Made by a program: the position numbers and the translations under genes. From the NCBI GenBank assembly GCA_041750655.1, contig JBGSYZ010000017.1, positions 68,142 through 132,141 of the forward strand: a stretch of 64,000 nt of DNA. Direction: 5' to 3'. Under the pieces are notes generated by a model. It had not been told where the DNA came from. It was given only the letters and a program-made list of their open reading frames with translations, and did no database searches. This DNA is from Minisyncoccia bacterium (GTDB lineage Bacteria; Patescibacteriota; Minisyncoccia; Phycocordibacterales; UBA918). Shown piece by piece: positions 2,280 through 51,529 of this stretch. Each line of letters opens with the position of its first letter. Positions within the stretch are counted from its first letter, which is position 1.

Positions 2280-5200
2280 ATGGCAATTAATTTTGGTGGC
2301 GGAGGAGAACCAGGGCGAATTTACTTAGGAAGTAACCAAGTAAACAAAATTTTTTTTGGGAGTACTGAAGTGTGGCCAACTTCACAAACGATATTTGATC
2401 AGGTAGAAGGTTTACGGTATCAGACAACCGCTAATGGTCGAAGTAGCAGCAACACGCTTAAAGTGCCTGGTGTCGACGCCTTGCCAAGTGGTATCAGTAT
2501 TTCTGGCTCTTTAATTAATGTCACTTCTTACACTGGTGATCTAACAGATTGGGATTTTCGTAACTACACTCTGACAATTAAAAGTAGCATGGGCACCATT
2601 AGTCAGTGTCTGTTTGGTGAAACCTCAGTTACGGGTATTTTTTCTTATCTGGATGTGTATACGACTGGCTCGGTCGCCTTGGTTGAGTACTGTGATTTTA
2701 CTGGACCATTTACCTACGGAGGAGCTGGAACAGCTATTAACACCCGGGTATCAGGAACCGGTGTCTCTGTAGTGGTGGGGGAGATAACTGATATTAACCG
2801 GTGCCGTTTTACCGGGCTCGGATCAGATGCTATTAAGGCAGGTGGCGGCCAGACTGCAGCAGGAGAACGTATCCGGTGGTGCTACTTTGGTGCTCCGGTG
2901 AACTTACCATTTTTGCCCGCTGCCTGGAGTTCAGCGACTACCTACAATACGGGTGACTGGGTCTACCATACCAATACAAACTACGTATTTCGGAGTTTAA
3001 CTGACAACAATCTGAACAATACTCCACCTACATCTAAAACTGATAACGCTTTTTGGGAAAATATAGACCCACACTCAGACGCTATTACCGTGTTTGTCGC
3101 TATCAATAAAGTTTCGATCGAAAACTGTCTTATCGACATGACCGAAGATCCAGTTGGTGTGTATGGCCCCTATCCAGCCATTGGTCTTAACAACGCTTTT
3201 CGTATTGCACGCAACACAAATGCAAATGATTTACGATTTGATGAGGTTGTAGTACAGGAGTGTGTAGTGCGCACCAGTGCCACCAGTACTTCTTACCCAA
3301 TTGATGTGTATGACAGTAGTCAGCCAAATTTCAATGGTCCTATCCGCTTTGTAGCTTCTTGGATGGAACCATCATCAACAAATAATTATTTTCATCCCAA
3401 TGCTAATGGTTTGGTACAGGAGTGGATAAATATGCGAGATATCGCTACTGGTAATCTTATCGCGGCCCCAACTGGGGCAACCATTACGAGCGGTATCAGT
3501 ACTCCGCTGGTTTTGACTGAGCTGCCACGGGATAAGATGATCATCGATGCTGAAATTATTTTTGGCAACAATCAAGCGAGGTTAACACTTAGTGGGACAG
3601 CTGAAGCTGGTGAAGTTATCCAAGGCTATGATAATGGTGCCGACTCGTGGTCAGATATTGCCACTGCCGACGGTGCTGGTGATTGGTCAGGTGAGCTGTT
3701 GGTGACAAACGTCGACGGTGCTGCGTGGCGTACAGCCCAGGTGCGTTACAAGAATGATCCGAGTCAGACCGCCACTTCCACAAATACATTCTCCCCGGGT
3801 GTTGTTTTCGCATTCTTAAGCCAATCCGAACTCCAGCAAGCCATCCAGTCGTTTCAGGATCAGTCAGCCGCTATTGCTATTCAGGATGATGATATTTTAC
3901 AAATGGTAGTCGTGGACGATGATACTGCTGTCACTCCGAGTCTCACTCACTATCATGTTACGCAAGCAAATAAAGATAGCCAGTCTGGTTTTGTAGGGGC
4001 AACCCCGAAAATAACAAACAGTGTCGCTGCTCTCGCCAACGTTCTCAGCAACAATGCTCCAGGTCGACGTTTTCTCTTTCTCGACATGATGCATTCTGGA
4101 ACCAGTCGGGTTGATTTAGGTAATGATTCTGATACTGATCGATACTGGACACACTTGCAAGCGATGATTGACTGGGTGAGAAATAACGGTTCTGACGTCG
4201 GAGTTGTATACGAAATGTGGTACGCCGCTGACCGTGGTCAACAGTTTAAGGAACGGTTTGCGCCACTGTACTTCGGACAAGACTGGGCAGGTAGTACTTT
4301 TACACTCGGCACTACCCATAGTTTAATTTCAGCTGTTGTTGACCATTGCTATTTTGACCTCGACACTACGGCCGATGACTTTGGCCGAGGCGTGTTTAGA
4401 CGCGATCGCACAAAATTTGTTCAAGCATCGACTAACTTTTTTGCCAGTACTAGCGATCTTTCTAACGCTGAAACAGTAGCTTCAGATAGTTCGTCTGCGT
4501 ATGATCTGGTAAATGCCCGTCGGACACGTGAAGATCTTGATTTATTCCATCAAGATTCGCGTACTCAAGAGTGTTTTGCACCGTTAAGTATTGACCCAAT
4601 CTGCGTACGACAGGGAGAGTTTAGTGGCACCTGGTCTGATACGTCTCACCCAAGTGATGATGATCCAGACGGACTGCCTCTTATGTATCGTCATGCGGCC
4701 GTTGCTATTTTGCACGCACTCGGTGATATTTCATTTACAATTCCAACGTGGGAAATGACTACACTGGATGCCTCGGGCAACTATGTAGAATTCCAAGCCA
4801 GTGGTGGAGCTGGTACGTTGACTACGTTGCGACTACAGAGAGCAGAAGCAGCTATTACCGGACAGCCACACTACACCGAGGTGATGGGCTTTGAGATAGA
4901 CCAAGGAAGTGGTTTTGTTGCCTCAGGCTTTACGGCAACTGTCGTTGATGATACGAACCGTATCGTTCGAATTACACCGGACACACCGTTTGTTAATAAT
5001 GATGCAGTTCGTTTTGGGTGGGGAGGAAGCACAGGACACCGTATCTATCAAACTGATTTTACCAATGAGGTATACAAAAATGTCCCCATTATTGACTACA
5101 GCTTACCTGAATATCCTGGAGTTCCAGTAGCGCCGTATCCGAGGTCAGATAACTACACAGTCTCTGGTTTGTCTGGCGGTGGTGGCGGGGCAGTGACCTT

Positions 5201-34433: not shown

Positions 34434-34574
34434 TTTATGAAGAAAAGATGTACGTGGTAAGGGGCTGAAACAGTCTGGGAGATTGTTTCAGGAGGTTGCC
34501 TTGGATTTTGTAAAAACACCGACAACCAGTACAGCTCCTGTAAGGAGGGCCAGTTCATTGGTACACTACGAATA

Positions 34575-34646
34575 TGAAAACTCGTTGCGCATGGTGTACA
34601 GAAGAACAAATCTATATTGACTACCATGATAAAGAATGGGGTTGAA
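34575..34646 (+). pseudogene. Truncated duplicate of the tag 5' end (23 codons then stop)
   Basis: MKTRCAWCTEEQIYIDYHDKEWG* vs the Tag start MKIRCQWCGDDPLYISYHDTEWG. The upstream leader is also duplicated, each copy with a hairpin (ctgaaaca...tgtttcag / ttgaaaatgtc...gacattttcaa). Confidence 0.5.
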
Positions 34647-34751
34647 AATGTCTGGAGACATTTTCAAAAGGTTTACTAATATTTTTGCTAGAAAATATTG
34701 AAAACCTGAACAGTTTCTGTAAGAAATACCAGGGACTGGTACACTAGGTAT

Positions 34752-35312
34752 ATGAAAATTCGCTGCCAGTGGTGTGGGGATGATCCTCTCTATATTTCTT
34801 ATCACGATACTGAGTGGGGTGTACCAGTGTATGACGACATCAGGCTATTTGAATTTATTACTCTTGAAGGGGCGCAGGCGGGTTTGTCGTGGTTGACCAT
34901 TTTAAAAAAGAGGGAAGGATATCGCAAGGCATTTAAAGGGTTTGATCCCAAAAAAGTGGCTAAGATGACACAAAAGGATGTAGAAAGGTTGATGAAGGAT
35001 GAAAGTATTATCCGTAATCGACTGAAAATAAACTCGACGATAACTAACGCGCAAGCTTTTTTGAAGATTCAAAAAGAATTCGGTAGTTTTTCGGCCTACA
35101 TGTGGGCTTGGGTAGAAGGTAAACCGATTCAAAATAAATTTAAGAATATTAGTGATGTACCGGCGGTGACCGAGCTCGCCACCGCTATGTCCAAGGATTT
35201 AAAAAAGCGGGGTTTCAAATTTCTCGGCCCAACTATCTGGTATGCTCATATGCAAGCCTGTGGGGTGGTGAATGACCACACGGTGGATTGTTTTAGGTAT
35301 AATGAACTTTAA
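34752..35312 (+). CDS. tag: DNA-3-methyladenine glycosylase I
   Basis: Cys4 zinc snap motif (C-x2-C...H...C). The conserved YHDTEWG and GAQAGLSWLTIL confirm the Tag family. Confidence 0.85.
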   Translation: MKIRCQWCGDDPLYISYHDTEWGVPVYDDIRLFEFITLEGAQAGLSWLTILKKREGYRKAFKGFDPKKVAKMTQKDVERLMKDESIIRNRLKINSTITNAQAFLKIQKEFGSFSAYMWAWVEGKPIQNKFKNISDVPAVTELATAMSKDLKKRGFKFLGPTIWYAHMQACGVVNDHTVDCFRYNEL

Positions 35313-47728: not shown

Positions 47729-48409
47729 TTAATAGGTGTCTTCGATTGGTACCTCACAGGTTAGACCACACGCTTCGGGCGGCGGTGTGCCGCGCTCGGG
47801 GCAGGTACCGGTATAGATACACGCTTCGTCGGTCACGTCATTCTCGTATTCTGAAATGTTTGGCGAATTTTTGTCTCCGTAATACAGAAGCACTCGATCC
47901 GCTTCTTGATTAATGTAATCAGCAATAGGTGAGAATTTTTCACCATTTACATACAAGGTTAATTCTTTAGTTTCATTGGCACAGTATTCTTCACCAGTGT
48001 CTAGTGTTAAACAATCATTATTGATTTTAAATCCAATCGAACGCAGTAGGTCACCGAGAGTTAAACCCTCCGCATGGCGATGAATGATGTTACCTTGATT
48101 ATCGTGAAGATGAAGGTTGGCCAGTTTTACGTCATTAGCTGTAGACTGGTATTTGTCTTGAGTTAAATCAACCTTTTTTCCATCCACCATTATTAAGAAA
48201 TCTGAGTGTACGTGAACTTCTCCTATGTGTTCATGGTCGTCGTGGTCGTGCGTTTCTGGGGTGGTAACCATAAAAAATATGCGCATAGCAATTGCGCCCA
48301 CAATAACACCTAAAATCAAAGCTTTCTTATTCATAGTTTTGGCAGTATACCACCAAATAATCAAATTTATGTATTGAATCTCTTGAAAAAATCTGTACAA
48401 TGTCCCCAC
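47729..48409 (-). CDS. Secreted/anchored hypothetical protein with His/Asp-rich segment and C-terminal Cys pairs
   Basis: Signal anchor, then TPETHDHDDHEHIGEVHVH and a C-terminal CIYTGTCPERG...CGLTCE. Confidence 0.45.
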   Translation of the reverse strand: MGTLYRFFQEIQYINLIIWWYTAKTMNKKALILGVIVGAIAMRIFFMVTTPETHDHDDHEHIGEVHVHSDFLIMVDGKKVDLTQDKYQSTANDVKLANLHLHDNQGNIIHRHAEGLTLGDLLRSIGFKINNDCLTLDTGEEYCANETKELTLYVNGEKFSPIADYINQEADRVLLYYGDKNSPNISEYENDVTDEACIYTGTCPERGTPPPEACGLTCEVPIEDTY

Positions 48410-48454
48410 GTCTATGACTATTCATAGACACACAAAAAAATACATTCCGGCGTA

Positions 48455-48472
48455 GCTCAGCGGAGTAAAAGT
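48455..48472 (+). repeat. Truncated 5' copy #1 of tRNA-Asn (acceptor 5' strand + D-stem) with conserved upstream aaatacat
   Basis: tccggcgtagctcagcgg, identical to the first 18 nt of the intact tRNA at 48817. Confidence 0.8.
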
Positions 48473-48633
48473 AAACAGTTTTACTTTTAATCTGGTCACG
48501 AGCGATAGTCGAGTGATTGGCCGATGTTTGGTCGCAAATAAGGTCAAAAGTGGGAGAGTGTACTCTACCGCTAAATGTGTTGATATATTTAACATAAACT
48601 GCGAATAGAGGTCACATTACAATAAAATACATT

Positions 48634-48656
48634 CCGGCGTAGCTCAGCGGTAGAGT
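48634..48656 (+). repeat. Truncated 5' copy #2 of tRNA-Asn (23 nt)
   Basis: tccggcgtagctcagcggtagag. The three 5' copies are spaced about 180 bp apart. Confidence 0.8.
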
Positions 48657-48816
48657 GAGAAAGTCTTAAGACACTTTCGCAAGACTTTGACTACTATTTT
48701 TACGAAAAGAAAAATAGTGACAAAGTGGACAGCTTCTGTAAGAAGGTTGACGTAGGCAACTGCGTAAACTACAGATTAGTCCGAAATTCTATTGATGACT
48801 ATTTTTGGAAATACAT

Positions 48817-48888
48817 TCCGGCGTAGCTCAGCGGTAGAGCAGTTGACTGTTAATCAATTGGTCGTAGGTTCGAATCCTACCGCCGGAG
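48817..48888 (+). tRNA. tRNA-Asn (anticodon GTT)
   Basis: Cloverleaf: acceptor TCCGGCG/CGCCGGA, D-arm GCTC-AGCGGTA-GAGC, anticodon arm GTTGA-CTGTTAA-TCAAT and T-arm GTAGG-TTCGAAT-CCTAC, with discriminator G. CCA is not encoded. Confidence 0.85.
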
Positions 48889-48894
48889 CATCCA

Positions 48895-48923
48895 ACAAAA
48901 AAGACCCGAAAGGGTCTTTTTTG
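48895..48923 (+). terminator. Terminator after tRNA-Asn
   Basis: aaaaaagaccc-gaaa-gggtcttttttg. Confidence 0.75.
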
Positions 48924-49040
48924 TTGTCGATGCTCCGAGCGAGAAAGGTGTGGGACACCTTTCGGGTAGGATTCGAAGACCTTGCTTAGTATTTTTGTAA
49001 AAAATACTGACAAGGTGTACCGTTCATGTAATGAAAGAAA

Positions 49041-49057
49041 CTCCTACCGCCGGAGCA
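49041..49057 (+). repeat. tRNA-Asn 3'-end fragment a (T-stem 3' strand + acceptor 3' strand), att-like
   Basis: ctcctaccgccggagca. Preceded by a hairpin module (48941..49022) homologous to 48657..48733. Confidence 0.7.
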
Positions 49058-49150
49058 CTGAAAATCCTTTTTTTTGGTATTTTTCTAATTTTTGACTTTC
49101 TAGGCACTCTTAGGTACGTTACTAAGAGATGATTCACTTGGGAGAAAACA

Positions 49151-49312
49151 ATGAAAGAGGACACTCCTGCGCAGGACGAAGTTAACTTCCTGAATGCTGA
49201 ATACAAAACGTACATCGAAAGGGAGAAATCGACCTGGCTCTCTGAAAATCGAATCGATTCGAGAGATGTGTACGAAGTAATGAGTCCTGAAGACCAGAAA
49301 AAAGTGCACTGA
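49151..49312 (+). CDS. Cassette small ORF (53 aa)
   Basis: SD gggagaaaacaATG. Followed in the +2 overlap by a 41-aa ORF (49316..49441). Confidence 0.3.
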   Translation: MKEDTPAQDEVNFLNAEYKTYIEREKSTWLSENRIDSRDVYEVMSPEDQKKVH

Positions 49313-49621
49313 CGCATGGAGCAAGCAAACCACCATATATCAAGTCTTGCGGAGGCGTGGTGGAAAGAACGTGGATTTGGAATCGTCTGGCCTGACGATA
49401 ATTCAGAACCAATGAAGGTTTATAAACTAAAAGCAGTCTAATACAAAATGGTGACTGCTGACTAAAGCTTCCTTTCGCAAGATTGGCGGCTTTTCTTTTT
49501 ACTCAACAAAAAAAGTTCGAACATCATCCCATAAGCGGAGCCAGTAAAAATAGCCCACAAACAGTGGTTATTTTTATGCCCCTTCGTGGACATTAGAACC
49601 TTCTCTGACCTCAAGCCAAGG

Positions 49622-49840
49622 TTACTTCTTTTTATGATGTTTGTATTCAACGCTCCACACCAGATTTGGTTTTACTTCCGCTATAGCGGGCAATAGATGG
49701 TTGAGAAGCTGTTCAGCTGTCATCCGAAACTTTTTACCTTTTGCGGAAATCTTGACCCATCCCTCCTCATCACGAAAGTAAGTTTCGGTGAAGTTTTTAG
49801 TCCCCATCGAGATTATGTAGCTGTCATTTGTTAGTTTCAT
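49622..49840 (-). CDS. Cassette small ORF (72 aa)
   Basis: Complete ORF with no recognised family (MKLTNDSYIISMGTKNFTETYFRDEEGWVKISAKGKKFRMTAEQLL). Confidence 0.3.
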   Translation of the reverse strand: MKLTNDSYIISMGTKNFTETYFRDEEGWVKISAKGKKFRMTAEQLLNHLLPAIAEVKPNLVWSVEYKHHKKK

Positions 49841-49919
49841 ATAGGAATATCATATCAAAAGTTAGGTATAAAAATGTTGGGATTATTTTGAAAATAGGTT
49901 CTAACGTCGTTCACTAGGT

Positions 49920-50084
49920 GGAGCATCAGTTTCCAAAACCCCAACACGATTGAGTGTTGGGGTTTTGTGATACTGACTCTGAGGACGGATTCGAAAAGGT
50001 TGACTGATATTTTACGACTGGAAGGAGTAAAAATATCGACAACCTGTACTGAAGCAGTAGGCTTCGAATCCTACCGCCGGAGCA
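49920..50084 (+). repeat. About 165-bp direct repeat copy 1 ending in tRNA-Asn 3' fragment b
   Basis: About 90% identical to 50588..50750. Contains a terminator-like hairpin aaaaccccaacac-gattga-gtgttggggtttt, a GGATTCGAA T-loop-like box, the AT-rich hairpin gatattttac...gtaaaaatatc, and finally gtaggcttcgaatcctaccgccggagca. Confidence 0.8.
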
Positions 50085-50157
50085 CTACTTGACATAGTAA
50101 TATTACTGTGTCAATATCTTGCTTGGACAATCCCGTCCTTTTAGAAGGAGGTGCTGT

Positions 50158-50433
50158 ATGGCAGAAATTGAAGAGTATGTCCTCGACATAGAGGATTTTA
50201 TCAGAACGAGGAAACCAGATGGAACAATCGTTCTGACACACCCCACCTTTTCAGGAACGGTCGAATTCGGCCCGAATGAATCACCAATGTGGCTGTTTCC
50301 GAGATTAAAGGAATTCTCGGAAAACAATGGTGTTCTTCTAAGCCCCAAGCTGGCACGACTGGCTAAGGGAGTGGAAGACGACCTAAGTGGGAACGCTTGG
50401 GACTACGACGAGTCTGAGGACGACCTCTACTAG
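50158..50433 (+). CDS. Cassette small acidic protein (91 aa)
   Basis: Strong SD gaaggaggtgctgtATG (MAEIEEYVLD...) and a rho-independent terminator at 50464..50493 (aaccccgccc-gaatga-ggcggggtttttt). Confidence 0.5.
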   Translation: MAEIEEYVLDIEDFIRTRKPDGTIVLTHPTFSGTVEFGPNESPMWLFPRLKEFSENNGVLLSPKLARLAKGVEDDLSGNAWDYDESEDDLY

Positions 50434-50587
50434 GCACAGGAGCTACCAATGTCTATAAGACCATAACCCCGCCCGAATGAGGCGGGGTTTTTTGTTATGC
50501 AAGATCCAGAGAAGAGAAAGATGATATGAAGTGTAATTCTTTCTCTATACTCTGCCAGTTCAATGTTAGAAACTCGTCCAGCACGCG

Positions 50588-50750
50588 GAGCATCAGTTTC
50601 CAAAACCCCAACACGTCTAGCGTTGGGGTTTTGTGATACTGACTCTGTGGACGGATTCGAAAAGGTTGACTGATATTTTACGACTGGAAGGAGTAAAAAT
50701 ATCGACAACCTGTACTGAAGCTGTATAGCTTCGAATCCTACCGCCGGAGC
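50588..50750 (+). repeat. About 165-bp direct repeat copy 2 ending in tRNA-Asn 3' fragment c
   Basis: Same architecture as 49920..50084. It ends in gtatagcttcgaatcctaccgccggagc. Confidence 0.8.
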
Positions 50751-50812
50751 TAGTAGAAGTACATTCAAAAAAGTGAATGTGTTTCTGTTATACTGAAATT
50801 AGTTAAAAGTAA

Positions 50813-51529
50813 GTGTATTCATTTTTTATGTTTTCGATAAAAAATCTAGCACGCATTACTGGAGCAACCTATCTCCTGATGATTCCGTTTGGTGTCTTGG
50901 GGATTTTGTATGTTCCAAGTGCTATCTTTGTACATAATGATATGGTTGCGACTGTTGGTAATATTATTGCTAATAAACAAATGTTCCATTTCAGCATTTT
51001 TGCTTCGCTTGTCGTGCAACTGATACAAATTGTTTTAGTATTACTTCTGTATAAATTACTCAGCCACGCCAGCAAAACAGCCGGAATACTTATGATTGCG
51101 TTCATCATCCCAGCTGTTTCTATCGCTATGCTTAATGAAGTTAATCTGCTTGCAATCAGTAGTTTAGTTAGTGGTGCGACTTATACTGCTAGCTTTACTG
51201 CAGAGCAAATTCAAGGACTCGTTGGATTGTTGTTTGAAATGCATCAAGCAGGTGTCTTTGTGGCACAAATCTTCTGGGGCATCTGGTTATTCCCTATGGG
51301 GTATCTTGTGTATCATTCAGGATACATACCTCGTTTTATTGGTGTGTTACTGATGATTGGTTGTTTCGGGTACTTGGCCGACTCATTATTTTTTGTATTG
51401 AATATTGACATCAGGTTTACTATCAGCGAATTCACATTCTTGGGAGAAGTATTGTTACCCCTATGGTTAATCTTTAAGGCAAGTGACATTGCTCTGTATC
51501 ATCCGAATGGCAAATTACAGACCGTGTAA
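50813..51529 (+). CDS. Polytopic membrane protein (DUF4386-like?)
   Basis: 238 aa with 6 TMs. The family guess is tentative. Confidence 0.4.
   Translation: MYSFFMFSIKNLARITGATYLLMIPFGVLGILYVPSAIFVHNDMVATVGNIIANKQMFHFSIFASLVVQLIQIVLVLLLYKLLSHASKTAGILMIAFIIPAVSIAMLNEVNLLAISSLVSGATYTASFTAEQIQGLVGLLFEMHQAGVFVAQIFWGIWLFPMGYLVYHSGYIPRFIGVLLMIGCFGYLADSLFFVLNIDIRFTISEFTFLGEVLLPLWLIFKASDIALYHPNGKLQTV

Follow-up and report, generated by a model that had tools for sequence, protein, structure and literature searches.

An uncatalogued, strongly conserved folded element adjoins tRNA genes across Patescibacteria

A strongly conserved folded element, uncatalogued until now, adjoins tRNA genes across Patescibacteria (CPR bacteria), a phylum with tiny genomes whose gene exchange is little understood and which is thought to be poor in mobile elements. 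The element marks many Patescibacteria tRNA genes and appears to seed arrays of accessory-gene cassettes without a linked recombinase. We found more than 250 copies in about 200-220 loci, almost all of them in Patescibacteria MAGs. Pattern matches fell in 84 genome loci compared with about 8 by chance, again nearly all of them in Patescibacteria, and a metagenome scan added at least 120 further loci. The window, the 64,000-nt stretch of DNA analysed here, comes from a Minisyncoccia bacterium (UBA918; GCA_041750655.1, contig JBGSYZ010000017.1, positions 68,142-132,141, forward strand) and holds four copies at 48657-50750 and two at 34455-34726.

A full unit is non-coding, about 130-190 bp long, and lies directly behind the last tRNA nucleotide on the tRNA strand. 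It opens with an A-rich trailer that includes a terminator-like hairpin. Then come the tRNA 3' end in antisense, a core formed by a long hairpin (P2) and a short hairpin (P3), and finally the tRNA 3' end in sense. The antisense copy covers the last ~21 nt of the tRNA and is usually split at the acceptor/T-stem boundary by hairpin 1, which is variable in sequence; the sense copy ends at the tRNA terminus. The conserved core of about 85 nt is common to several classes of the phylum. Judging from these sequences, we see an even chance that the units are non-autonomous, strand-specific elements that enter precisely at tRNA 3' ends, with a folded single strand as the recognised form and mobilisation supplied in trans.

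Fold and conservation of the module

The initial annotation of the window had reported compensatory changes between two hairpin modules near the tRNA-Asn gene, M2 and M3, and these are present where it placed them. Hairpin 1 reads GAGAAAGT..ACTTTC in M2 and GAGAAAGG..CCTTTC in M3, and hairpin 2 reads CTATTTTT/AAAAATAG in M2 and GTATTTTT/AAAAATAC in M3. The longer relative that it described was likewise recovered in both 165-bp repeats, with GGATTCGAA, GATATTTTAC..GTAAAAATATC and GACAACCTGTAC all present. One boundary had to be moved: the alignment of M3 (48941-49022) holds, but M2, given as 48657-48733, really reaches 48745 and so gains a third hairpin, CTTCTGTAAGAAG. A third covarying stem (ACTTTG/CAAAGT, ACCTTG/CAAGGT and AGGTTG/CAACCT) had been overlooked, and so had the fact that M3-M5 are flanked on the left by the tRNA 3' end in imperfect inverted form.

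The pattern GACAANNTGNAC occurred five times, with 0.56 occurrences expected, and DNA fold z-scores were -4.5 to -6.1 for M3-M5 and -2.6 for M2. A covariance model of 81 copies from other genomes and the window recovered all four modules noted before and two new ones, with E values of about 1e-17 to 1e-19 for M3-M5 and 7e-9 for M2. In P2 and P3 of the 81-sequence alignment, 97.9% of cells made a pair, compared with 73.1% in column shuffles and 32-44% in slid controls, and double-sided changes numbered 281 against 84 in the shuffles. These figures fit neither free drift of the stems nor recent duplication as the only source of the similarity. Hairpin 1 kept a constant shape through 102 distinct stem sequences. 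The hairpin modules are real and under selection for their fold, beyond chance, and more than 80 independent copies lend strong support to the core of the earlier inference, namely that the covariation reflects a selected fold.

Unpaired positions are conserved as well. The alignment has 23 invariant columns and 19 that are at least 90% conserved, and the conserved junction and loop nucleotides are GGATTCGAA, TTGCC, CGACAA, TGTAC and TGTAA, the last being the invariant loop of P3. Apical loops are of the GNRA type, a tandem G-A is conserved in P2, and the sole internal loop of P2 is a conserved CC(W)/GA. Such junctions, loops and tandem G-A pairs are more typical of structured RNA than of known folded-DNA sites, an observation that speaks against an attachment module. 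A hammerhead or other small ribozyme was rejected because covariation of the P3 stem extends across what would be the catalytic core. Among the pairs, G-U outnumbers A-C mismatches by 33 to 11, and this excess indicates that the folding strand is the tRNA-sense strand. Since GC skew is positive across the entire window, the folding strand would probably be the lagging-strand template, where single-stranded DNA is exposed.

Rfam 15 at the gathering threshold returned tRNA alone in the window, and at E <= 10 it returned nothing over the module core or the whole unit (48350-50850). Three pattern scans of IMG/VR gave chance matches or none, blastn against phage and plasmid collections gave no match, and no account of the element turned up in the literature, searched by topic and by conserved sequence. 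Read most conservatively, the family is a widespread RNA or DNA structure missing from Rfam, which pipelines leave blank or mis-call as tRNA fragments.

Layout of the loci in the window

Intact tRNA-Asn(GTT) (48817-48889; ARAGORN; Rfam tRNA, 75.6 bits) is the attachment point of the array, the features of which are given on the + strand. Two 5' fragments of the tRNA precede it. Fragment #1 (tRNA positions 1-18; 48446-48463) is an exact 18-mer match belonging to repeat family D2, and the same 8 nt (aaatacat) directly precede it and the intact tRNA-Asn. Behind fragment #1 lies spacer M1 (48464-48624), which opens with the hairpin AAAAGTAAA/TTTACTTTT and contains CTCTACCGCT (48563-48572), the reverse complement of tRNA positions 15-24. 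The initial annotation had a module next to each tRNA fragment; M1 is no member of the family, having no homologue among ~90 related loci, and its DNA fold z-score is -2.7. Fragment #2 (positions 1-23; 48633-48655) adjoins hairpin 1 of M2 and breaks off after GGTAGAG, exactly as in locus L006. The fragments do not add up to a tRNA, so that split tRNA halves were rejected, as was a retroviral-type primer-binding site, for which the CCA complement is absent.

M2 (48657-48745; covariance-model match of 45.7 bits, E = 6.9e-9, model positions 14-80) is made up of hairpin 1 (48657-48678), GCAAG, P2 (48684-48726) and P3 (48733-48745). It has neither the GGATTCGAA box nor inverted arms, and a diverged tRNA-like remainder (48746-48808) follows directly 3' of it. 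The same architecture was found in L030, L085, L108, L173 and L224. Copies of this '5'-type' (M2 and those of the Tag locus, L030, L108, L173 and L224) have no tRNA-3' arms, and duplicated 5' portions of their target lie on either side of them.

The Tag locus holds the two copies that were first revealed by the covariance-model search and had been unsuspected before. X1 (34455-34559, + strand; match at 34481-34559, 30.4 bits, E = 3e-5) has hairpin 1, P2 and P3 without tRNA arms and lies upstream of a 5' pseudo-fragment (34574-34645) of a Tag glycosylase gene. X2 (34640-34726, + strand; match at 34669-34726, 38.3 bits, E = 4e-7) lies directly behind this pseudo-fragment, 25 nt upstream of the intact Tag gene (34752-35312; Pfam Adenine_glyco match, E = 3.6e-85). 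No single attachment-site model so far accommodates the 5'-type copies.

Directly behind the intact tRNA-Asn follows U1, a cargo-less '3'-type' unit that holds M3 (48890-49057; 80.6 bits; inverted repeats I6 and I7; DNA fold z = -6.1). Its trailer with the terminator-like hairpin (48893-48926) leads into the antisense acceptor arm GCTCCGAGCG (48932-48941), hairpin 1 (48942-48963), the antisense T-stem/T-loop GGGTAGGATTCGAA (48964-48977), P2 (48979-49016), P3 (49022-49035) and the sense tRNA 3' end CTCCTACCGCCGGAGCA (49041-49057). Cargo segment A (49058-49542) carries two small ORFs, one without a Pfam match (49151-49312) and one at 49316-49441, and closes with the 'short site' AAAAAAGTTCGAACATCATCCCATAAGCGGAGCC (49508-49542), the scaffold of which recurs in L051 and L068. 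Cargo segment B (49543-49925; repeat family D4) carries a 72-aa ORF on the minus strand (49622-49840) and closes with the degenerate tRNA-3'-like site GGTTCTAACGTCGTTCACTAGGTGGAGCA (49897-49925).

The first 165-bp repeat is unit U2, which holds M4 (49926-50084; D1 repeat; 87.8 bits; DNA fold z = -5.3). Its trailer and hairpin (49934-49967) are followed by a degenerate antisense arm, CTCTGAGGACGGATTCGAA (49977-49995), P2, GACAACCTGTAC (50038-50049), P3 and the sense tRNA 3' end (50060-50084). Cargo segment C (50085-50592) starts with a palindromic TTGACA-type promoter-like site (50089-50114), carries a 91-aa ORF (50158-50433) and a terminator (~50462-50490), and closes with the site GTTAGAAACTCGTCCAGCACGCGGAGCA (50565-50592). 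Its homologues (76% and 64% identity) lie in the same type of array, where the cassette again starts right behind a tRNA-like end. The second 165-bp repeat is unit U3, which holds M5 (50593-50750; 86.4 bits), is 97% identical to U2 and closes with AGCTTCGAATCCTACCGCCGGAGC (50726-50750). The sequence CCTACCGCCGGAGC, present in four copies in the window, is a tRNA 3' direct repeat at the distal boundary, and the same pattern was seen in related loci.

Each unit and each cassette ends with the tRNA 3' terminus, in the window as in L023, L017, L014, L068 and L092. Copy number varies among related genomes, with one or two units at tRNA-Cys, and L014 has at least three identical tandem units. The arrays are mostly only a few hundred bp long.

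Match between units and their tRNAs

The orientation of the units is fixed. All 76 tRNA-proximal copies in genome loci lie in tRNA-strand orientation, and with no inverted copy among them an invertible switch was rejected. The tRNA-to-core distance was 39-88 nt, on the same strand, for 56 cores. An independent metagenome set, covering 26 anticodon types, had 59 copies on the same strand and three on the opposite one.

The antisense arm matches the tRNA that it adjoins. In 22 of 42 unbiased cases the left box and the T loop of the adjacent tRNA are exact reverse complements, and the distal arm matches the adjacent tRNA at 8.19 of 11 positions, compared with 6.31 of 11 for permuted partners. The antisense arm keeps its fit to the tRNA even at loci with a truncated downstream sense copy (17 cases against 6). 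The tRNA pieces, called remnants in the initial annotation, are more than that: the antisense arm is a matched and maintained part of the unit. Cores that are 94-96% identical were found at different tRNA species, for which gene conversion between units could account instead of movement.

This matching is also what a guide RNA would display. The unit would then be the gene for a structured non-coding RNA of ~130-150 nt. Comparable to a bridge RNA, seekRNA or omega-RNA, this RNA would use its antisense arm of ~21 nt as a guide to the 3' end of the tRNA gene and programme a trans-encoded recombinase or nuclease for cassette insertion or maintenance at that site; the sense copy would be the duplicated target. 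We consider this rather unlikely. It gains from an arm that fits the adjacent tRNA better than a differing downstream copy and tracks 26 anticodon types, from the strongly conserved unpaired nucleotides with their GNRA-like loops and the tandem G-A of P2, and from a sense strand that tolerates G-U and an orientation that is fixed. The family is missing from Rfam, and the arm-less gene cassettes in the same arrays are expected of a guide that acts in trans. However, a terminator-like hairpin and T-run stand immediately before the arm, hairpin 1 would interrupt the guide, unlike in known guide RNAs, and linkage to an effector gene is absent. Nor is a promoter of constrained spacing visible: in the trailers listed, 18 to 27 nt separate the -35-like hexamer from the -10-like one. 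A promoter hidden in the trailer was rejected on this spacing and because the hexamers are the A and T tracts of a bidirectional terminator.

IS110 bridge RNA and IS1111 seekRNA are similar in that a structured non-coding segment has target complementarity, but here the complementarity lies in outer helix arms, not in internal loops, and there is no DEDD (PF01548/PF02371) linkage. The lone IS110 neighbour, in L224, is coincidental, as no module was found in 16 loci of the identical and a 74%-identical protein, except on the L224 contig, nor in five loci of a 58%-identical one. TIGR-Tas arrays were rejected for their differing architecture (36-nt units beside a Tas gene). A small structured RNA, as proposed in the initial annotation, stays one of the two leading functional readings, the other being an attC-like folded single-stranded DNA recombination site. 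Its co-transcription with the tRNA remnants is doubtful, given the terminator-like hairpin and T-run between the tRNA and most units.

One long palindrome (I6 and I7 in the window) runs from the tRNA 3' end through the terminator hairpin into the antisense arm, as would suit an immobile host cis-element. Such an element would serve as an extended terminator or processing structure of the tRNA transcript or as a 5' leader for the gene that follows; a template switch would have prolonged the terminator palindrome into the tRNA end, and local tandem duplication would have come after. Many tRNAs per genome carry a unit (all three in both L022 and L040), as this account would have it, and 59 of 96 downstream genes point the same way as the unit. 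A co-orientation of 61% is weak, however, and an obligatory 5' leader was rejected on this count. Template switching leaves the 85-nt core conserved across classes unexplained, and the account is equally silent on the copies that precede a protein gene whose 5' end is duplicated, the interleaved cassettes with the same terminus and the near-identical cores at different tRNAs. We regard it as improbable.

Neighbouring genes and possible modes of insertion

Small promoter-bearing gene cassettes with degenerate tRNA-3'-like ends alternate with the units. Their cargo consists of diverse single genes with no recombinase domains, and a homologous cassette in other genomes begins at the same junction. 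The gene cassettes have no antisense arm, and therefore the long hairpin is not needed in cis for every insertion.

No recombinase is encoded in cis. Pfam scans of 59 window ORFs (most ORFs of at least 150 aa in the 64-kb window) found none, and a single-sequence phmmer search, which is limited in sensitivity, found no XerD-like tyrosine recombinase in 1.27 Mb around ~250 units. All-vs-all clustering of ORFs revealed no recurrent protein family within ~4 kb of units; it gave housekeeping families only, in at most 8 of 79 loci of the first set and in 13 of ~200 at most in the second. The lack of a linked recombinase of any class speaks against an attachment module. Large serine recombinases are present in five loci and lie next to a tRNA-Ser gene in two of these. 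They were rejected as the enzyme of the units: the one studied closely, in L008, adjoins its own duplicated tRNA-Ser 5' fragment and not a unit boundary, and in L059 and L108 the 3' end of the gene runs into an antisense tRNA gene.

Repeated tRNA 3' fragments behind an intact tRNA are a classic tyrosine-integrase scar. The arrays could accordingly be read as decayed debris of integrase-carrying islands or prophages that repeatedly entered tRNA-Asn, the hairpins being leftover arm-type integrase sites or incidental. The repeated fragments, as in tycheposon islands, and the two serine recombinases at tRNA-Ser would fit this origin, which is nevertheless very improbable. The units are complete, conserved and under structural selection, with no decay; most arrays span a few hundred bp, the viral, phage and plasmid collections yielded nothing, the XerD-like search around the units came back empty, and the L008 serine recombinase has a tRNA-Ser duplication of its own. 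In the tycheposons of Prochlorococcus, successive tRNA integrations push older elements outward and leave partial tRNA repeats, and these elements are kilobases long, with small adaptive-gene cargo, a tyrosine recombinase and replication genes (bioRxiv 10.1101/2020.12.28.424599). They share with our arrays the tRNA 3' direct repeat at the distal boundary. In contrast, the units here measure 130-190 bp with no integrase gene inside, and neither the antisense tRNA arm nor the conserved hairpin core is described for tycheposons, the word 'hairpin' being absent from that paper (bioRxiv 10.1101/2020.12.28.424599).

Transposon ends offer another comparison. Those of IS608 have a target-complementary guide 5' of a subterminal hairpin, insert strand-specifically 3' of an intact target and show a bias for the lagging-strand template, and the topology of the module recalls them. 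A module has a Y1 transposase gene within 1 kb in three of ~220 loci, one of them L173, where the gene follows after 110 nt in the same orientation. In L224, a module bracketed by its own target duplication precedes the IS110 gene by 220 nt. We nonetheless see only a slim chance that the module is the end of an IS200/IS605-family (Y1 HUH) or IS110-family element, or a fused-ends PATE/MITE derivative. No module stood at either end in 20 loci retrieved for two CPR IS200-type transposases (75-78% identical to that of L173), nor in 20 further loci of the L224 IS110 transposase and its 74% and 58% relatives, and the ~220 module loci contain no other IS110 gene. Membership of the module in the ends of either family in cis is largely refuted. 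What IS200/IS605 elements and PATEs would have in common with the units is hairpin-based, single-stranded, oriented insertion 3' of the target, with a base-paired guide beside the hairpin foot. The differences are that the guide is ~21 nt here and 4 nt in IS608 and that there is no sequence similarity. For oriented insertion on the lagging-strand template without target duplication the signs are mixed: the orientation is fixed in 76 of 76 copies, the tRNA is left intact and GC skew suggests the lagging strand, but the unit ends in a target copy.

If the units are site-specific attachment modules, as we propose, the tRNA-sense strand would fold as DNA, not as RNA, and its antisense arm would pair either with the 3' end of the actual tRNA upstream or with the downstream copy of it. 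The pairing would rebuild a duplex image of the target, flanked by hairpins for protein recognition, and an enzyme presumably encoded elsewhere in the genome would exchange strands at the last few tRNA nucleotides, the units moving through an excised intermediate. Neither an excised form nor an empty site was observed. Because every unit ends in a fresh tRNA-like terminus, units and cassettes could be added one after another, which would produce integron-like arrays. This would be a new kind of attachment site, with its specificity written as complementarity to the target, for which retargeting is directly testable, and the covariance model, the exact boundaries and the target rule would give a handle on the acquisition of flexible genes.

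The arrays resemble those of integrons in having short, mostly single-gene cassettes, each closing with an imperfect palindrome like a recombination site, non-coding 'empty' cassettes, covarying stems and an implied strand-specific folding. The attC-like site suggested by the initial annotation finds support in the tRNA-terminus ends, the tandem arrays and the fixed orientation; literal membership in attC is opposed by the missing R/L core boxes, by the lack of an integron-type or other tyrosine recombinase in the searches of the window and of 1.27 Mb of related loci, and by the highly conserved loops and junctions. Unlike in integrons, the platform is a tRNA 3' end and not attI, no intI or other tyrosine recombinase was found nearby, the arms copy the target, the cassettes bring their own promoters and the hosts are Patescibacteria. 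Unlike attC, the palindrome ends are not RYYYAAC/GTTRRRY core boxes but vary from locus to locus, being the tRNA 3' end and its complement, and the 23 invariant and 19 highly conserved columns have no counterpart there. It is possible, though doubtful, that Patescibacteria have a hitherto unrecognised, programmable cassette-integration system in which the folded module, through its ~21-nt complement to the 3' end of a chosen tRNA gene and acting as a guide RNA or as self-folding single-stranded DNA, directs an unlinked enzyme to insert units and promoter-bearing cassettes exactly at the tRNA terminus. The arms would be rewritten for each of at least 26 different tRNAs and, now and then, for a protein gene. 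Such a system would be a tRNA-anchored functional analogue of the integron, its specificity defined by base pairing.

The folded attP of CTX-phi (an IMEX that uses XerCD) also has two inverted target copies tens of nt apart, from which a single strand can form a duplex resembling the target, and the recombinase would likewise be host-encoded and unlinked. Here, by contrast, the target is a tRNA end and not dif, filamentous-phage genes are absent, the units are ~170 bp long and viral collections hold no match. ERIC, BOX and Correia/MITE repeats are similarly short, multi-copy, hairpin-forming and non-coding, with no transposase gene; the units described here differ from them in being specific to the tRNA terminus, in having arms re-specified for each target and in occurring phylum-wide rather than in one genus.

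Covariation and distribution of the module

The initial annotation had reported that the segments after tRNA-Asn 5′ fragment #2 and after the intact tRNA align, that both of their hairpins preserve pairing through double substitutions, and that a longer relative of this module is present in both 165-bp repeats (units U2 and U3). All of its sequence statements were correct when checked in the sequence. A four-way alignment revealed, in addition, a third covarying stem (ACTTTG/CAAAGT, ACCTTG/CAAGGT, AGGTTG/CAACCT). Single strands of M3, M4 and M5, the module copies in units U1, U2 and U3, fold much better than shuffled sequences (z = −4.5 to −6.1). The annotation had missed that, on their left flank, these copies repeat the tRNA 3′ end in inverted and imperfect form, in M3 in the order GCTCCGaGCG, hairpin 1, GGGTAGGATTCGAA, so that each module is a palindrome-like structure of about 110 nt with a tRNA fragment as its end.

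Searching species-representative genomes with a degenerate M3–M5 pattern gave 84 matching stretches, with an estimated 8 or so expected by chance. Five of them, in coding sequence, were plainly fortuitous, and the remainder came almost entirely from Patescibacteria MAGs (Paceibacteria, Kaiserbacteria, Saccharibacteria, Nomurabacteria and Parcubacteria), a few carrying the labels Bacteroidota, Acidimicrobiales or just ‘bacterium’. An alignment of 81 core sequences contained 23 invariant columns and clear helices. Paired cells amounted to 97.9%, compared with 73.1% in column shuffles and 32–44% with slid partners. Cells changed on both sides numbered 281 versus 84 in shuffles, which bears out the structure-conserving covariation proposed in the annotation, and 12 of the 17 core pairs showed compensatory change. 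The excess of G-U/U-G pairs (33) over A-C/C-A mismatches (11) indicates that the tRNA-sense strand is under structural selection. The fold is firmly established as selected, strand-specific and multi-hairpin. Hairpin 1, which lies 5′ of the core and outside the model, had 102 distinct stem sequences in a constant 9–11-bp shape, with an apical loop mostly of (T/C)GGGA type.

The covariance-model search suggested in the annotation was performed with R1, built from the core alignment. It recovered 125 copies in genome loci and, in the window, M2 (a ‘5′-type’ copy), M3–M5 and two further copies at 34481–34559 and 34669–34726. A less constrained pattern matched at least 120 loci on metagenome contigs. 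Rfam 15 gave no match to the module at the gathering threshold or at E ≤ 10, no match was found in IMG/VR, a phage collection or a plasmid collection, and no description of the element emerged from the literature, whether searched by topic or with the conserved 12-mers. Confinement of the family to Patescibacteria is firm for the collections searched.

Placement at tRNA ends and matching arms

Side-by-side reading of five other loci (L023, L017, L014, L068 and L092) and the window yielded a single parse of the unit: an A-rich trailer with a terminator-like hairpin, an antisense tRNA 3′ end, the core (long hairpin P2 and short hairpin P3) and a sense tRNA 3′ end that halts at the tRNA terminus. 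The antisense copy is usually split by hairpin 1, exactly between acceptor part and T-stem part. In the genome loci, 56 cores begin 39–88 nt past a tRNA 3′ end on the same strand, second copies lie at 156–305 nt and others beyond 0.9–1.8 kb of cargo; of the copies no further than 400 nt from a tRNA, all 76 share its strand (73 downstream, 3 upstream). Among the metagenome matches listed, an unbiased set with targets of 26 anticodon types, 49 downstream and 10 upstream copies shared the strand of the tRNA, and 3 copies lay on the other strand. Exact placement of units at tRNA termini, in one orientation, is firmly documented.

The left box is the reverse complement of the neighbouring tRNA's own T loop (GGACTTGAA with TTCAAGTCC, GGGGTCGAA with TTCGACCCC, GGAATCGAA with TTCGATTCC). 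Among the metagenome matches listed, found with a pattern that excluded the box, 22 of 42 boxes matched at 9/9 positions. For non-canonical T loops the mean match was 7.85/9; 200 permutations of the partners gave 6.75, with 7.26 as the highest value. Over the final 11 nt of the tRNA beside it, the distal arm agreed at 8.19 positions, compared with 6.31 when partners were permuted (maximum 6.81). That the arms copy their target, antisense and sense, is firmly supported. Truncation or divergence of the downstream sense copy does not abolish the fit between antisense arm and tRNA (17 cases versus 6), with 12/12 matches in L089, L029 and L022. Because the arm matches the tRNA, the tRNA end, terminator hairpin and antisense arm make up one long palindrome. 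The antisense arm can pair with either the real tRNA end upstream or the copy downstream.

Our leading interpretation, held with evenly balanced confidence, is that the unit is a folded-DNA attachment module. It would be the non-autonomous module of a cassette system that resembles integrons and uses tRNA 3′ ends as its anchor. Recognition would be of the single strand in folded form, with the antisense arm rebuilding a duplex image of the target, and strand exchange would take place at the last nucleotides of the tRNA. GC skew points to the lagging-strand template as the strand that folds. The proposed folded unit shares its geometry with CTX-phi attP and attC, and its topology with IS608 ends. 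The main rival, that the unit encodes a guide-like RNA, is favoured by an arm that tracks the tRNA and not the downstream copy, as well as by the conserved loops, GNRA-type tetraloops and tandem G-A; however, a terminator-like hairpin precedes the arm and no recognizable promoter is present, and we consider this rival doubtful.

Different genomes, some of them closely related, share cores that are 94–96% identical and are located at different tRNA species (8 kb per locus compared). Either units move between tRNAs with their arms re-specified, or gene conversion homogenizes the cores.

Variant cores swap P2 but keep the tRNA-derived flanking arms (L017 5390–5330 and 290–230, minus strand; L091 3795–3910; L085 3700–3610), for example GGATTCGAAGAGCTTTTGAGGTAGATTTGACC... 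and a GC-rich form beginning GGATT(C/T)GAACCGAG; R1 does not capture the full diversity of the ‘payload’ that the arms enclose. Several modules (L006 3325–3235 and 2715–2625, minus strand; L087, L034 and L007) carry within the P3 loop, just after TGTAAGC, another small element whose ends are CTTGAAC/GTTCAAG, and the module itself serves as a target of another insertion.

Cassette arrays and copies at other targets

The sole tRNA gene of the window, tRNA-Asn(GTT) at 48817–48889, has two 5′ fragments upstream (48446–48463 and 48633–48655) and three 3′-end copies downstream (ending at 49056, 50083 and 50750). The same 8 nt precede the intact gene and each 5′ fragment. After the tRNA, the array continues with U1 (48890–49057), cargo A (to 49542), cargo B (to 49925), U2 (to 50084), cargo C (to 50592) and U3 (to 50750). 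Every segment terminates in (C)GGAGC(A), and the insertions leave the tRNA gene itself uninterrupted. Units alternate with protein-coding cassettes, which start with a TTGACA-type promoter-like site directly after the tRNA-like terminus and end in a degenerate tRNA-3′-like ‘short site’ (shared scaffold AAAAGT(G)TCGAAC.. and a target-specific tail); joint building of arrays with promoter-bearing cassettes is firmly established. Cassette starts with such a TTGACA −35-like box lie at 50089–50114 in the window, where the box belongs to the 26-nt palindrome TTGACATAGTAATATTACTGTGTCAA, at about 3937–3962 in L091, and at about 3431–3460 and 3925–3955 in L092. Cargo is varied (LD-carboxypeptidase, Ham1, HD-domain proteins in two loci, DUF6671, a zeta-toxin-like kinase, DUF695), and many cargo proteins had no Pfam match. 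A homologue of the window's 91-aa cargo protein occurs in similar arrays from two other metagenomes, with an identical cassette-start junction.

The spacer after 5′ fragment #1 (48464–48624) is unrelated to the module family and has no homologue among related loci. It contains CTCTACCGCT (48563–48572), the 10-nt reverse complement of tRNA positions 15–24, the region where the 5′ fragments break. By eye, a good sigma-70-type promoter-like site (TTGAAT-N16-TACAAT, 48373–48400) lies upstream of fragment #1, which suggests that the original tRNA-Asn promoter is now about 420 bp away from the intact gene. The product of a minus-strand gene adjoining the array (47729–48334) is 201 aa long, begins with a signal or transmembrane segment, includes a His/Asp-rich stretch (HDHDDHEH) and has no Pfam match. 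The gene was found on only one other contig, which ends about 320 bp past it, in the 5′-fragment region upstream of the tRNA; this suggests that assemblies break in these repeats.

M2 is without the GGATTCGAA box and arms. Its hairpin 1 lies directly 3′ of tRNA positions 1–23, and the sequence past P3 resembles a diverged tRNA remainder. L006 has the same arrangement at its tRNA-Asn, with an identical breakpoint. In L030, a 5′-type copy follows position 15 of tRNA-Tyr, which resumes at position 19, and in L108 the 5′ fragment is an inverted repeat of tRNA-Glu on the opposite strand. The window's two further copies (34455–34726) are remote from any tRNA and alternate with duplicated 5′ ends (about −25 to +70) of the 3-methyladenine DNA glycosylase I gene Tag (34752–35312); the upstream Tag copy is a pseudo-fragment terminating in TGA. 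In L224, the module lies between duplicated segments of about 30 nt upstream of an IS110 gene. Apart from L085 and L173, all copies examined in detail are flanked by direct repeats of a target segment. These 5′-type copies at other targets show that the family is not restricted to tRNA 3′ ends.

Candidate enzymes and neighbouring elements

No recombinase was found in 59 scanned ORFs of the window, a set that includes most of its ORFs of at least 150 aa. Across 1.27 Mb of module loci, single-sequence phmmer searches detected three Y1 transposases and no XerD-like protein. ORF clustering revealed large serine recombinases in five loci and no recurrent non-housekeeping protein close to units. The L008 serine recombinase, examined in detail, adjoins its own duplicated tRNA-Ser 5′ fragment. 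It is firm for the loci searched that the units carry no cis-encoded recombinase.

Insertion sequence genes provided two leads. In L173, the module is followed at a distance of 110 nt by an IS200-type transposase gene. It was absent from 20/20 loci retrieved for two related CPR IS200-type transposases (75–78% identical). The module was likewise absent from 20/20 further loci retrieved for the transposase encoded by the IS110 gene behind it in L224 and for two relatives (74% and 58% identical), and L224 is the only module locus with an IS110 gene. The module is therefore not an end of either insertion sequence, and we infer from these tests that whatever acts on it acts in trans. A non-mobile cis-element, classical-island debris and an IS-derived element together take up the probability left by the folded-DNA and guide-RNA readings.

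By their defining tests, the unit is not an attC site, an integrase-borne island, an IS200/IS605 end, an IS110 bridge RNA or a member of any Rfam family, yet its way of working is closest to attC and integrase-borne islands, and we therefore regard it as a variant of site-specific cassette integration outside all named families. If base pairing proves to set target choice, it would deserve the name of a new kind of system.

Large serine recombinase genes run at their 3′ ends into an antisense tRNA gene in L008 (3925–5424; tRNA-Ser), L059 (4366–6333; tRNA-Ser) and L108 (12–1412; tRNA-Glu), and form a separate integrative element using tRNA 5′ parts. The tRNA-Asn(GTT) genes of the Patescibacteria contigs L092 (2735–3390) and L006 (about 3140–2890, minus strand) are split in the anticodon loop by intron-like insertions of about 250–650 nt, so that ARAGORN misses them; the L092 insertion encodes an HNH-type protein. 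Proteins of about 220–245 aa with an N-terminal HTH (ORF cluster 10) are encoded directly upstream of, and co-oriented with, tRNA genes in eight loci (L114, L121, L144, L172, L175, L189, L192 and L199), and HNH proteins of about 165 aa (ORF cluster 18) between tRNA-Cys and tRNA-Leu in six (L016, L070, L088, L100, L110 and L145). Both may be free-standing homing endonucleases of tRNA clusters.
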